Shown: positions 17,623 through 21,635, numbered from the stretch's first letter. The stretch is 64,000 nucleotides of DNA from an uncultured Actinomycetes bacterium (GCA_963718375.1 CAVQZD010000005.1:652841-716840), one strand, 5' to 3'. Numbers and translations: made by a program. The notes: a model not told the origin generated them from the letters alone.

Positions 17623-19725
17623 ATGCTTGAGAGCCTGCTCAAACCCAAGGCCGTGGCGGTGATGGGGGCCTCGATGACCTCCGGCAAGGTTGGCAACGCC
17701 GTCGTGACCAATCTCATCGAAGGGGGATTCGAGGGCGCGATCGTACCGGTGAACCCTTCTGGCGGCGAGTACATGGGTCAGAAGTTCTACACCAGCCTTG
17801 AGGAATACGGCGGCCCAGTGGATTGCAGCGTCATCGCCGTGCCCACCAAGGCCGTCAAGGGCTCCGTCGAGAGCTCACTCAAGGCCGGCGCCAAGGCAGT
17901 GGTAGTCATCACCGCCGGCTTCAAAGAGGTGGATGAAGAGGGCGCGCATCTCGAGGCTGAGATCGCCGCCATGTGCAGAGCGGCGGGCGCCCGCCTCATG
18001 GGCCCCAACTGTCTGGGACTCATCAACACACACCACAAGTTCAACGCCTCCTTCGCCCGGCACATGCCCAATGCCGGCGGCATCTCAGTGCTCTCACAGT
18101 CGGGAGCACTTTGCACAGCCATACTGGACTGGGCGGCGGCCCGCAAGCTGGGGCTCGCCACCCTCGTCAGCATCGGCAACAAGGCAGACCTGAACGAGAT
18201 AGACTTTCTCTCCGCTTTCGCCGACGACGACGAGACAAAGGTCATCGTCGGTTACCTGGAGAGCATCGGGGACGGCGACGAGTTCATCCGAGTGGCCGAA
18301 TCGGTCGCCACCCAGAAGCCCGTGGTCATCCTCAAGGCCGGCACCACCTCCGCGGGCTCCAAAGCCGCCTCGTCGCACACTGGGGCCCTGGCCGGTGCCG
18401 ACATCGCCTACGGCGCCGCCTTCAAGCGCGCCGGTGTAATAAGGGCAGACACCTTCGAGAGCCTTTTCGACTTGGCCACCGCCCTGGCCATGCAGCCGCT
18501 GCCCAAGGGCGACCGCGTGGCGATCATCACCAACGCCGGCGGACCGGGCATCATGGCTGCCGACGCGGTGGAGTCCGCCGGGCTCAAAGTCACCGTCCTG
18601 GACGATTCGGTGGCGACCGCGCTACGCAGCAAGCTGCCTGCGGCGGCCAGTGTGGGCAACCCTATCGACGTCCTCGGTGACGCCGACCCCTCCCGCTATG
18701 CCCTGGCTGTCGAAGCCGCGCAGGATGACCCCAACGTGGATGCCGTCCTCATCATCCTGACGCCGCAGGCGATGACCCAGCCCGCCGAGACCGCAGTCGC
18801 CATAGCCGAGGCGGTGAAGGGCGAGAAGCCGGTACTGGCAGCCTTCATGGGCGGCGAGGACATCATGCCCGGGCGCGACCTGCTTGTCGCTCACAACCTG
18901 CCCGACTATCCCTCGCCAGAGCGCGCGGTCGTCGCCATAAAGGCGATGGTCGAGTACTCGCAATGGCGAGAGCGCCCAGAGCGCATAGTGGCCCGTTTTC
19001 CAGTCAACCGGCGCCGAGTGGAGCGTGTGATCGCCCGGCAGCTCCGCACCGGCCGCACCTATATCGGGGAGGCCAAGGCCAAGGACATCCTGCGCGCCTA
19101 CGACTTCGTCGTCCCAGACGGACGCTTGGTCACCACGGTGGAAGAGGCGATAGAGATCGCTCCGCGCTTGGGCTACCCGCTGGCCATGAAGATCGTCTCC
19201 CCCGACATCATCCACAAGTCCGATGTGGGCGGAGTGAAGCTGAACCTGAACAGCCCCACCGACGTGGCCGACGCCTTCGAGCTCATGATGATGCGCATCG
19301 GGCGCGGGATGCCCGAAGCCTTCTTGGAGGGGGTGTACATGGAGCGCATGGTGCCCAAGGGCCGCGAGGTGATACTGGGCATGACGCGCGACCCGCAGTT
19401 CGGCCCCATGCTGATGTTCGGCCTGGGCGGTATCTTTGTGGAAGTGATGAAAGACGTCACCTTCCACCTGGCACCGATCACCTCTACCGAGGCGATGGCC
19501 ATGCTCATGGGCACGCGCTCGTACAAGCTCCTTGAGGGGGTCCGGGGCGAGCAGGGCGTCGACCTGCCGGCGATAGGCGAGGCGCTACAGCGTATCAGCC
19601 AGCTGGTCACCGACTTCCCCATGATCGACGAGCTCGACATCAACCCCTTCATCGTGGGCAAACCCGGAGAGGACTCAGTGGCGGCAGACGGACGAATCCA
19701 GTTGGCTGAAGGGGGTGCGCTGTGA
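17623..19725 (+). CDS. acetyl-CoA synthetase (ADP-forming), fused alpha/beta acyl-CoA synthetase (NDP-forming)
   Basis: CoA-binding VAVMGAS, succinyl-CoA-synthetase-like, and C-terminal ATP-grasp domains. About 700 aa, typical of the ACD/Pat N-terminal module. Confidence 0.85.
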   Translation: MLESLLKPKAVAVMGASMTSGKVGNAVVTNLIEGGFEGAIVPVNPSGGEYMGQKFYTSLEEYGGPVDCSVIAVPTKAVKGSVESSLKAGAKAVVVITAGFKEVDEEGAHLEAEIAAMCRAAGARLMGPNCLGLINTHHKFNASFARHMPNAGGISVLSQSGALCTAILDWAAARKLGLATLVSIGNKADLNEIDFLSAFADDDETKVIVGYLESIGDGDEFIRVAESVATQKPVVILKAGTTSAGSKAASSHTGALAGADIAYGAAFKRAGVIRADTFESLFDLATALAMQPLPKGDRVAIITNAGGPGIMAADAVESAGLKVTVLDDSVATALRSKLPAAASVGNPIDVLGDADPSRYALAVEAAQDDPNVDAVLIILTPQAMTQPAETAVAIAEAVKGEKPVLAAFMGGEDIMPGRDLLVAHNLPDYPSPERAVVAIKAMVEYSQWRERPERIVARFPVNRRRVERVIARQLRTGRTYIGEAKAKDILRAYDFVVPDGRLVTTVEEAIEIAPRLGYPLAMKIVSPDIIHKSDVGGVKLNLNSPTDVADAFELMMMRIGRGMPEAFLEGVYMERMVPKGREVILGMTRDPQFGPMLMFGLGGIFVEVMKDVTFHLAPITSTEAMAMLMGTRSYKLLEGVRGEQGVDLPAIGEALQRISQLVTDFPMIDELDINPFIVGKPGEDSVAADGRIQLAEGGAL

Positions 19726-21635
19726 GCAAGGCCACCTACGACGCAGACTGGCAGAACAAATACAGCAGCATCGTCATGAACGCGAAAGCGGCCGTCGGCA
19801 AGATCCGCCCCGGTCAGACGGTCTTCATCGCCAGTGCCAGTGCGCAACCTCTGCACCTGGTGACAGCCTTGGTGGCGCGCGAGCACGAGCTGGCCGACGT
19901 CAAGGTTCTCTCGTCGCTCACCCTGGGTGATGCGCCGTATGCCTACAAAGATCTGGCGGACAACTTCTACGTGAACACTTTCTTCGTGTCCGCCAACGTG
20001 CGCGACATGATCCAGGAAGGCATCGGCGACTACACGCCCATCTCGTTCAGCGATATCCCTCGCCTCTTCGAGAGCGGTGAGATACCTATAGACGTGGCCC
20101 TGATCCAGGTGACGCCGCCGGACCCGCAGGGCCGGTGCAGTCTGGGCATCTCGGTGGACATCGTCAAGGCGGCTGCGGCCAACGCCGGCCTCGTAATCGC
20201 CCAGGTCAACCCGCAGATGCCATGGACCCACGGCGACGGCTACGTAAGCGTCTACGACCTGGACATCCTGGTTCCGGTCGATGAACCCCTGATCGAGACC
20301 CCCTATGCCGGGTTCGTGGACGACGCCACCACCGGCGTCATGACCGGGGCCGACGATGCCCGCCCGGTGGCCGCGGCCATCGGTGAGAACGTGGCCTCGC
20401 TGGTGGAGAACGGAGCGACTCTAGAGATAGGCATTGGCCGCATCCCCCACGCCGCCGCCATGTACCTCATGGACAAGAAGGATCTGGGTATCCACACCGA
20501 GGTCATCACCCCGGCGGTGATGAGGCTGGTGGAGGCGGGCGTGGTCACCGGGGCGCAGAAGTCCCGCGACCGCGGCAAGATAGTCACCAGCTTCGCCATC
20601 GGCGACAGGGAGTTCTACGACTACATCGACGACAACCCGATGTTCTCGTTCAACCCCACCGAGTACGTCAACGATCCTTTCATCATCGGGTCGCAGAACA
20701 AGATGGTGGCCATCAACACGGCCCTCGAGGTGGACCTTACCGGTCAAGTGTGTGCCGACTCACTGGGCACCAGTTTCTACTCGGGCGTCGGTGGCCAAGC
20801 TGACTTCAACCAGGGGGCCGGCCGCTCGGTCGGCGGCCGGGCCATCATCGCGCTGCCCAGCACTGCTGCCGACGGCACCGTATCGCGCATCGTGCCCACC
20901 CTGCAGCCGGGTGCCGGCGTGGTGACCACCCGCGGCGCCGTGCACTACGTGGTCACCGAGCACGGCATCGCCTACCTTCACGGCAAGAGCGTCCAGGAAC
21001 GGGCCATGGCGCTGATAAGCATCGCCCACCCGGACTTCCGCGAGGAACTGCTGTCCAAGGCCGTAGAGTACAAGTGGGTACGGCCCGGGATGGCCGACGT
21101 CGAGGGCCGTTTTTTTGTAGGACCCAAGGAGCTCCGCACCAGCATGGTGCTGGACGACGGCACGCTGATCAGCTTCCGTTCCATGAATCCCACCGACGAG
21201 CCGGCCACACGCGACCTGTTCTACTCGCTGTCGCAGGAGACGGTCTTCTACCGGTACATGCAGCACCTGAACCGCATCCCGCGCAAGCAGTTGCAGAACT
21301 ACGTGTATGTAGACCATCGCAATGAGGTGGCCATCGTGGGGACACTCCCCGAGGCCCACGGCGAAGACATCATCGCCATCGGTCGCTACTACCTCGATCA
21401 GAAGACGAACCGCGCCGAGGTGGCGTTCGTAGTGCGCGACGAGTGGCAGAAGCGCGGCATAGGGAGCTTCGTGATGCGGCACTTGGCCAACATCGCCAAG
21501 CGCAACGGTATCGCCGGTTTCACAGCCGAGGTAATGCGCGACAACAGAGCGATGCAGACGGTCATCAACCACAGTGGACTCAAGGTGACCAGCGCGCTGC
21601 GCGAGGGCGTCTACCACTTCGAAGCCGACTTCTAG
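19722..21635 (+). CDS. acetyl-CoA hydrolase/transferase-family enzyme fused to a C-terminal Pat-like GNAT acetyltransferase domain
   Basis: N-terminal ~450 aa resembles Ach1/Cat1/4-hydroxybutyrate CoA-transferase. C-terminal ~180 aa has the GNAT motif VVRDEWQKRGIGSFVMRHL. Overlaps the upstream gene by 4 bp. Confidence 0.75.
   Translation: MSKATYDADWQNKYSSIVMNAKAAVGKIRPGQTVFIASASAQPLHLVTALVAREHELADVKVLSSLTLGDAPYAYKDLADNFYVNTFFVSANVRDMIQEGIGDYTPISFSDIPRLFESGEIPIDVALIQVTPPDPQGRCSLGISVDIVKAAAANAGLVIAQVNPQMPWTHGDGYVSVYDLDILVPVDEPLIETPYAGFVDDATTGVMTGADDARPVAAAIGENVASLVENGATLEIGIGRIPHAAAMYLMDKKDLGIHTEVITPAVMRLVEAGVVTGAQKSRDRGKIVTSFAIGDREFYDYIDDNPMFSFNPTEYVNDPFIIGSQNKMVAINTALEVDLTGQVCADSLGTSFYSGVGGQADFNQGAGRSVGGRAIIALPSTAADGTVSRIVPTLQPGAGVVTTRGAVHYVVTEHGIAYLHGKSVQERAMALISIAHPDFREELLSKAVEYKWVRPGMADVEGRFFVGPKELRTSMVLDDGTLISFRSMNPTDEPATRDLFYSLSQETVFYRYMQHLNRIPRKQLQNYVYVDHRNEVAIVGTLPEAHGEDIIAIGRYYLDQKTNRAEVAFVVRDEWQKRGIGSFVMRHLANIAKRNGIAGFTAEVMRDNRAMQTVINHSGLKVTSALREGVYHFEADF

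Follow-up and report, generated by a model that had tools for sequence, protein, structure and literature searches.

Bacterial GNAT acetyltransferases have been classified into types I-V (PMC8556138) or types I-IV (PMC12184503), and neither scheme includes an enzyme with a CoA-transferase domain. In Pat of types I and II, the domain resembling an ADP-forming acyl-CoA synthetase (ACD) is catalytically inactive and its catalytic histidine is absent (PMC8556138). The regulatory domain of PatZ, which binds acetyl-CoA, also controls the gating motif of the GNAT and shapes the Acs pocket (PMC12184503). In the acsA/acuABC system of Bacillus subtilis, lysine acetylation by a GNAT renders AcsA inactive, and the modification is reversed by AcuC (PMC8556138). 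Here, we analysed a two-gene locus in a stretch of 64,000 nucleotides from an uncultured Actinomycetes bacterium (GCA_963718375.1, CAVQZD010000005.1:652841-716840; hereafter the window). An ACD gene (open reading frame 1, ORF1) is followed by a gene (ORF2) whose product joins a CoA-transferase to a Pat-type GNAT. An earlier note, made from the DNA alone, did not recognise this architecture as a described one. It is indeed absent from both classifications, and our literature search found no description of a CoA-transferase-GNAT architecture, though an account in a subscription journal is possible.

ORF1 (17623..19725, + strand) starts with ATG and encodes a 700-residue ADP/NDP-forming acyl-CoA synthetase with fused alpha and beta parts. 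ORF2 (19722..21635, + strand) starts with GTG and encodes the 637-residue fusion protein. The stop of ORF1 and the start of ORF2 overlap by 4 bp, GTGA (19722..19725), and a Shine-Dalgarno-like run, GAAGGGGG (19708-19715), lies 6 nt upstream of the ORF2 start. Both the coordinates and the overlap are exactly those given in the earlier note, and the reading frame of ORF2 runs unbroken across its domains with no frameshift. The overlap suggests that translation of the 2 genes may be coupled, and together they make up a conserved two-gene module, probably with coupled translation. We favour, at about an even chance, a reading in which a working ACD and a bifunctional ORF2, comprising a live CoA-transferase and a protein-lysine GNAT, would operate in this one module.

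Residues 9-453 of ORF2 (19746..21080, + strand) form a family I CoA-transferase domain of the 4-hydroxybutyrate/butyryl-CoA:acetate type, as indicated by Pfam, NCBIfam, and PDB matches. Pfam places AcetylCoA_hydro at residues 28-181 (1e-22) and AcetylCoA_hyd_C at residues 294-447 (4e-66). The closest solved relatives are 9vag (1e-124, residues 19-453), 2oas, 3eh7, 3d3u, 3gk7, and RipA (3qli). The domain had earlier been labelled as Ach1/Cat1 family. The CoA-transferase part of that label stands, whereas Ach1/Cat1 proper does not, the nearest relatives being 4-hydroxybutyrate and butyryl CoA-transferases. AbfT, butyryl-CoA:acetate CoA-transferase, and RipA match the domain over its full length (1e-124 to 1e-75) and share its catalytic glutamate, GxG loop, and GGQ motif, but no solved or characterised member of this group carries a C-terminal GNAT.

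The catalytic glutamate, the nucleophile that forms the CoA thioester, is assigned by alignment to Glu260 in the GIHTE motif (codon 20499..20501, + strand). In Yersinia pestis RipA, the catalytic residue is Glu249 and a G-V227-G gating loop lies 22 residues upstream of it (PMC3180442). The counterpart of this loop in ORF2 is G237-I238-G239 (20430..20438, + strand), 22 residues before E260. The assignment of Glu260 thus rests on the alignment of HTE in all solved 4-hydroxybutyrate CoA-transferases and on a GxG-to-Glu spacing equal to that of RipA. Further downstream, the SGVGGQADF motif aligns with SGFGGQLDF and SGVGGQMDF of the solved transferases. Its G357-G358-Q359 (20790..20798, + strand) is presumably the GXGG(Q/A) oxyanion/CoA-binding motif of class I CoA-transferases. 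We then aligned 83 fusion proteins sharing approximately 46-100% identity, which define the window clade. E260 is invariant (83/83) and the GGQ motif nearly so. Retention of E260 across such divergence argues for selection on catalysis.

A linker (residues 454-477, 21081..21152, + strand) separates the end of transferase homology from the start of GNAT homology. The Pat-type GNAT domain occupies residues 478-637 (21153..21632, + strand) and is recognised by Pfam Acetyltransf_1/3/4, NCBIfam, and PDB matches. Acetyltransf_1 matches residues 534-612 at 5e-8, and the NCBIfam model for mycobacterial Pat matches at 1.4e-23. Among PDB entries, the domain matches residues 692-870 of full-length PatZ (2.7e-14), Streptomyces lividans PatA (9e-14), Mycobacterium tuberculosis Pat (3e-13), and also MsPat. 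These matches bear out the earlier view of the C-terminus as a Pat-type GNAT, and among characterised proteins its best relatives all acetylate protein lysines. In mycobacterial Pat, a glutamate serves as the general base (PMC8556138). The candidate equivalent in ORF2, assigned by analogy, is Glu566 in the R-A-E-V-A strand (codon 21417..21419, + strand). An 'AEVA'-type motif is found in nearly all of the 83 aligned fusions. The acetyl-CoA pyrophosphate-binding motif, defined as Q/R-x-x-G-x-G/A (PMC8556138), is represented by Q576-K-R-G-I-G581 (21447..21464, + strand). A QxxGxG-type motif is kept throughout the window clade and also in a branch whose transferase is dead, described below.

ORF1 contains the full set of ACD Pfam domains over residues 9-694, in the fused alpha-beta order. 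They are CoA_binding_2 (17647-18027), Succ_CoA_lig (18073-18486, 4e-53), Ligase_CoA_2 (18517-18942), and ATP-grasp_5 (19042-19704, 6e-80), all on the + strand. The protein aligned end to end (residues 5-692) with PDB 8wzu, the ADP-forming 4-hydroxybutyrate-CoA ligase of Nitrosopumilus, at 5e-163 and 547 bits, whereas PatZ scored 323 bits. The alpha-part histidine is His252 in the SHTGALAG motif (codon 18376..18378, + strand), which aligns with SHTGALMG of 8wzu and SHTGSIAG of 4xyl, the ACD of Ca. Korarchaeum. We take His252 to be the phosphohistidine of the alpha part. Opposite the SHTG of ORF1 (...AASSHTGALAG...), PatZ (9isq) has a 4-residue gap in the alignment. The second, beta-part histidine is identified by alignment as His531 in the HKSDVGGV motif (codon 19213..19215, + strand). 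Both histidine motifs are kept and the score to a real ACD is far better than that to PatZ, so ORF1 looks like a working ADP-forming acyl-CoA synthetase, predicted to be an enzyme rather than a Pat-style sensor. The SHTG and HKSD motifs and the difference of 547 versus 323 bits rule out a dead Pat-like domain. The same domain order and both histidine motifs are shared with 8wzu and 4xyl, 8wzu being aligned over its full length. ORF1 differs from these enzymes in falling below the equivalog cut-off (650 versus 1300 bits) and in its operon tie to a GNAT fusion, which is unreported for them.

The fusion is not peculiar to the window. A protein search returned more than 120 full-length ORF2-like fusions at 69-100% identity, and at least 600 genome stretches encoding ORF2 relatives emerged when one genome was scanned for each species. 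The earlier note had proposed looking for the same fusion in other genomes and had allowed for an assembly chimera. The fusion proved to be widespread, and its recurrence in hundreds of independent assemblies rules out both a chimera and a frameshift. Among the 150 closest representatives of 50%-identity clusters of the GNAT domain, 62 have a CoA-transferase segment ahead of the GNAT, which is full length in 25. The closest named relatives come from metagenome-assembled genomes (MAGs) of Thermoleophilia/Actinomycetota, with relatives also in Chloroflexota MAGs. Locus counts given below as x/80 for the window clade and its orthologous loci refer to the best 80 of at least 600 genome loci, from ten or more phyla. 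These include Actinomycetota, Chloroflexota, Myxococcota, Thermodesulfobacteriota (many Desulfobulbaceae), Verrucomicrobiota, Planctomycetota, Lentisphaerota, Kiritimatiellota, Acidobacteriota, Fibrobacterota, and others, and the isolate Limisphaera sp. VF-2 (Verrucomicrobiota) is among the carriers. Database labels are generic, reading 'GNAT family N-acetyltransferase' or 'acyl-CoA hydrolase/GNAT superfamily N-acetyltransferase'. The architecture, though new to the searched literature, is common among deposited sequences and carries only such generic annotation there.

The ACD partner is conserved along with the fusion. At 73/80 loci of the window clade, as in the Chloroflexota MAG L001, the fusion gene is immediately preceded on its own strand by a full-length ACD gene, and the median gap from the ACD stop to the fusion start over orthologous loci is approximately 8 bp. 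Exceptions include 2 loci without room on the contig and 1 with the ACD downstream. Aligned partner ACDs retain the alpha-part histidine in all but one case and the beta-part histidine in most. With the transferase glutamate and the GNAT motifs likewise conserved in this clade, all three active sites appear intact. Moreover, direct fusions of related GNATs to ACD domains are known from P0203, P0259, and P0148, and a protein of 598 residues (P0265) joins such a GNAT to acetate kinase. By the Rosetta-stone argument, these fusions link acetate-activating enzymes functionally with the GNAT, and the Pat-type GNAT clade seems to acquire its partner domains from many enzymes of acetate/acetyl-CoA metabolism. 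Several unusual proteins were also encountered. In P0148 (625 residues), the ACD is truncated inside the ATP-grasp domain before the GNAT. P0200 (960 residues) combines a 4Fe-4S ferredoxin, a CoA-transferase, and a GNAT. P0160 has short ACD, CoA-transferase, and GNAT pieces in turn within 174 residues, and is most likely the product of a metagenomic contig that was misassembled or collapsed, not a genuine triple fusion.

Such tight adjacency, with genes overlapping or nearly so, would also be expected if the locus were a true split Pat, in which the ACD acts in trans mainly as a regulatory and oligomerising partner, the transferase serves as a spacer or second sensor, and no turnover is needed. 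The ancient association of ACD and GNAT, seen in the direct fusions of Pat types I and II and of P0203 and P0259, is in line with this proposal, as is a fusion (P0126) that retains its ACD though the transferase glutamate has become alanine. Opposed to it, both histidine motifs, lost in Pat domains (PMC8556138), persist in ORF1 and in nearly every partner ACD, and ORF1 is much nearer to characterised ACD enzymes than to PatZ. The invariant E260 and near-invariant GGQ of the paired clade are likewise unexpected for a mere spacer. We regard a split Pat without turnover as quite unlikely. The earlier label of a split Pat-like system is thus upheld as to the functional link between ACD and GNAT, which the 73/80 upstream ACDs, the short gap, and the GNAT-ACD fusions support, but not as to a Pat-like dead ACD.

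The locus nonetheless resembles type I Pat (E. coli PatZ, 9isq/9it0; Salmonella enterica Pat) in several respects. The GNAT is of the same type and carries the type I features, QKRGIG at residues 576-581 and the candidate glutamate E566; a module of approximately 700 residues with ACD architecture is associated with it; and a large enzyme-derived CoA-ester-binding domain is N-terminal to it. The differences are that Pat is a single polypeptide, whereas ACD and GNAT are on two polypeptides here; that the GNAT is fused to a 450-residue family I CoA-transferase instead of an ACD; and that the ACD-like domain of PatZ is dead, whereas ORF1 keeps the catalytic histidine motifs. The locus is not a type I Pat, because two defining features, the single polypeptide and the dead ACD domain, are lacking. 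Type I Pat also modifies the active-site lysine of AMP-forming acyl-CoA synthetases; a like target is hinted at here indirectly, by the Acs genes beside 14/80 orthologous operons. We regard the locus as an additional domain type among bacterial Pat-like acetyltransferases, accompanied by a conserved enzyme partner.

Conservation of the transferase site is confined to part of the family. Among 24 divergent fusion representatives, 11 have A, S, P, D, C, or Q in place of the catalytic glutamate, with the GGQ motif degraded, and a rough neighbour-joining tree suggests several independent losses. In the large P0250-like branch, examined in a metagenomic sample of 80 loci (L083-L162), the glutamate position is occupied by P, F, Y, Q, or S and GGQ is missing, while the GNAT motifs A[D/E]VA and QGxGIA are preserved. 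None of these 80 loci has an adjacent ACD, L158 having only a distant, truncated ACD match. They have no conserved neighbours, the best neighbour cluster covering 9/80 loci, and the genes stand alone. Four single lineages without the glutamate (P0161, P0214, P0245, P0255) have no adjacent ACD either. P0126 (E to A) has an ACD upstream with intact histidines. Of the other fusions with an intact glutamate, P0197 has an ACD directly downstream and overlapping, and P0169 and P0242 have none adjacent. The presence of an ACD partner thus follows from the state of the glutamate only in part, since P0126 breaks the pattern one way and P0169 and P0242 the other. The association is overwhelming when counted by locus and suggestive when counted by lineage, and we treat it as a lead. 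Overall, the family appears to hold both 'live' and 'dead' transferase domains ahead of a conserved GNAT, and the dead ones would parallel the dead ACD domain of Pat.

The many replacements of the glutamate (A, S, P, D, C, Q, F, Y) and of GGQ beside intact GNAT motifs indicate that a non-catalytic role exists in the family, and Pat offers a precedent for sensor domains derived from enzymes. ORF2 might accordingly be read as a type III-like GNAT whose transferase domain binds acyl-CoA or carboxylate without net catalysis, the ACD being an acetylation target or a co-regulated enzyme. For the window clade, this appears unlikely. Its glutamate is kept in 83/83 proteins, and the branches that lost it mostly lack the ACD (0/80 P0250-like loci and the 4 single lineages).

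To characterise the context of the module, neighbouring genes of the best 80 loci were clustered. A Hist_deacetyl (AcuC-like) gene is present at 38/80 orthologous loci in eight or more phyla, a 218-residue CBS-pair protein of AcuB size at 15/80, and an AMP-forming acetyl-CoA synthetase (ACAS_N, AMP-binding, AMP-binding_C) at 14/80. In Desulfobulbaceae, the genes for deacetylase, CBS protein, ACD, and fusion follow in this order on one strand. In Limisphaera sp. VF-2 (L054), the ACD (3897-5978), fusion (6001-7878), deacetylase (8054-9040), and Acs (9321-11240) genes are all on the + strand. These neighbourhoods point to reversible lysine acetylation, and the AcuC-like, AcuB-like, and Acs genes beside orthologous operons fit the coupling of acyl-CoA metabolism to protein acylation that the earlier note had proposed. 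They follow the writer/eraser/target logic of the B. subtilis acuABC/acsA cluster. The present system differs in that a Pat-type GNAT with a fused CoA-transferase takes the place of AcuA as the writer, no AcuA structure being among the PDB matches; in that an ACD is added; and in that no deacetylase, CBS, or Acs gene is present at the window's own locus.

The genes flanking the window's operon allow another interpretation. Three tandem PGA_cap paralogues (13400..17499, - strand) lie just upstream, preceded by a gamma-aminobutyrate (GABA) transaminase (12083..13387, + strand; TIGR00700, 528 bits, above the cut-off of 506.65). A GABA/4-hydroxybutyrate link of the operon is conceivable, because '4-hydroxybutyrate' enzymes are the top structural matches of ORF1 and of the transferase alike and the transaminase is nearby. 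Under the alternative interpretation, the ACD and transferase could make a particular acyl-CoA with which the GNAT acylates a metabolite amine, such as an amino acid, a polyamine, or a cell-envelope precursor. GNATs are chemically versatile, and in the window and its closest relatives PGA_cap genes adjoin the operon and a GABA transaminase is nearby. These PGA_cap neighbours are, however, confined to close relatives and absent from the conserved neighbour clusters, whereas genes for HDAC-type deacetylases, AcuB-like proteins, and Acs recur beside the operon across at least eight phyla, and the nearest characterised relatives of the GNAT all act on protein lysines. A small-molecule pathway of this kind is very unlikely. 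As an observation in its own right, a PGA_cap gene is also found upstream of the orthologous operon in L001.

We therefore return to the working ACD with a bifunctional ORF2, and propose that the two-gene operon probably links short-chain acid metabolism to protein acetylation. ORF1 would catalyse the reversible reaction short-chain acid + ATP + CoA <-> acyl-CoA + ADP + Pi. The transferase domain of ORF2 would move CoA between acetate/acetyl-CoA and another short-chain (hydroxy)acid. Together, they would set or report the local supply of acetyl/acyl-CoA made from free acids, a step paid for by converting one ATP to ADP, and would provide an ATP-cheap, ADP-forming route for activating or de-activating short-chain acids and for spreading CoA among them. 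The transferase domain may double as a Pat-like acyl-CoA-binding scaffold that gates the GNAT, as the dead ACD-like domain does in Pat. The Pat-type GNAT, acetylating protein lysines, would read the acyl-CoA state and then switch off AMP-forming acyl-CoA synthetases, with Acs as the most plausible target and possibly others. In many lineages, the adjacent AcuC-like deacetylase would reset the mark. Domain identities, conserved catalytic residues, operon conservation, and gene neighbourhoods are the observations on which the scheme is built. The enzyme activities and their substrates, the target of acetylation, and a possible physical complex or channelling are its predicted parts. A conceptual analogy is the cycle of acetate:succinate CoA-transferase and succinyl-CoA synthetase, in which a CoA-transferase and an ADP-forming CoA ligase convert acyl-CoA energy to ATP via a carrier acid. 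That cycle uses other enzyme subfamilies and no GNAT, and the analogy is purely conceptual.

Several points weigh against this proposal. Other branches of the fusion family have repeatedly lost the transferase glutamate while the GNAT persists, and transferase catalysis is therefore not essential to the whole family. The glutamate-less P0126 still has its upstream ACD, so that ACD pairing is not strictly dependent on transferase chemistry. The NCBIfam equivalog cut-offs for specific substrates are reached by neither protein: ORF2 scores 281.2 bits on TIGR03948 (cut-off 674.8), and ORF1 scores 650 on the 4-hydroxybutyrate-CoA ligase model (cut-off 1300) and 552.7 on AcCoA-syn-alpha, the acetate-CoA ligase alpha model (cut-off 567.15). 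No deacetylase, CBS, or Acs homologue was found in the window's 64 kb; the acetylation context for this genome therefore rests on orthology and is borrowed from other phyla. Finally, the AlphaFold2 model of ORF2, built from an alignment of 45 sequences, had a predicted local distance difference test score (pLDDT) of 54.5 and a predicted template modelling score (pTM) of 0.38, and was too poor to be used for the fold or the domain arrangement.

A stronger version of the proposal is that the module is a self-contained writer. The ACD and transferase would convert a free short-chain acid (for example 4-hydroxybutyrate, butyrate, propionate, or lactate) to its CoA ester and pass it directly to the attached GNAT, giving acid-specific, non-acetyl lysine acylations with the AcuC-like enzyme as the matching eraser. 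We consider this improbable. If true, bacterial lysine acyltransferases would gain a sixth class, whose members generate the acyl donor themselves, and the lysine marks would report which carboxylate is available.

The boundaries of the operon were also examined. Upstream, the divergent intergenic region between the PGA_cap gene (- strand) and ORF1 (+ strand) spans 17500..17622 and contains a Shine-Dalgarno-like run, GAGAGGA (17605-17611), ahead of ORF1. A consensus scan for sigma-70-like promoters around the operon, including this region, gave none, and Rfam and tRNA scans around the operon gave no match. Downstream, a 17-bp perfect GC-rich hairpin followed by GTTCTTG (21674..21712) lies between ORF2 and a convergent 'Sensor' gene (PF13796). 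Its fold energy is -45.3 kcal/mol (z = -8.0), and none of 200 shuffles was equally stable. It looks like a terminator between convergent genes that marks the end of the two-gene operon, and is probably bidirectional. Because this hairpin sits between convergent genes and the three PGA_cap genes upstream are on the opposite strand, ORF1 and ORF2 form a bicistronic operon. The GC content is approximately 0.64 and uniform over the operon region.

Other features of the window lie farther away. The mercury-methylation pair hgcA/hgcB (23886..25288, + strand) is located 2.3 kb downstream of the operon. HgcA scores 401.6 bits on NF040863 (cut-off 275), and HgcB 114.6 bits on NF040864 (cut-off 99). At ~31471..40231 (- strand), a cluster for corrinoid-dependent methyl transfer and tetrahydrofolate (THF) C1 metabolism encodes a pterin-binding methyltransferase, DUF1638, a B12-binding corrinoid protein, a pyridine-nucleotide disulphide oxidoreductase, MTHFR, FolD, a cyclodeaminase (FTCD_C), and formate-THF ligase. 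This cluster may possibly supply methyl donors for HgcA, or be a methyl-branch pathway feeding acetyl-CoA. Two putative overlapping ORFs on the + strand, at 6676..8400 (574 residues) and 8117..10378 (753 residues), have no Pfam or NCBIfam match.

The five recognised types of bacterial GNAT, which are sorted by the domain attached to the GNAT, omit a CoA-transferase-GNAT with an ACD partner that is present in ten or more phyla and at least 600 genome stretches. With an apparently live transferase in this clade and repeated pseudoenzyme decay in sister branches, the family captures the transition from enzyme to sensor that is assumed for the origin of Pat. The module is directly testable, since the cultured Limisphaera sp. 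VF-2 carries the full cluster of ACD, fusion, deacetylase, and Acs. If the proposed logic is true, the module might reveal enzymatic non-acetyl lysine acylation and would account for the choice that anaerobes and other bacteria make between cheap ADP-forming and costly AMP-forming activation of acetate and other short-chain acids.

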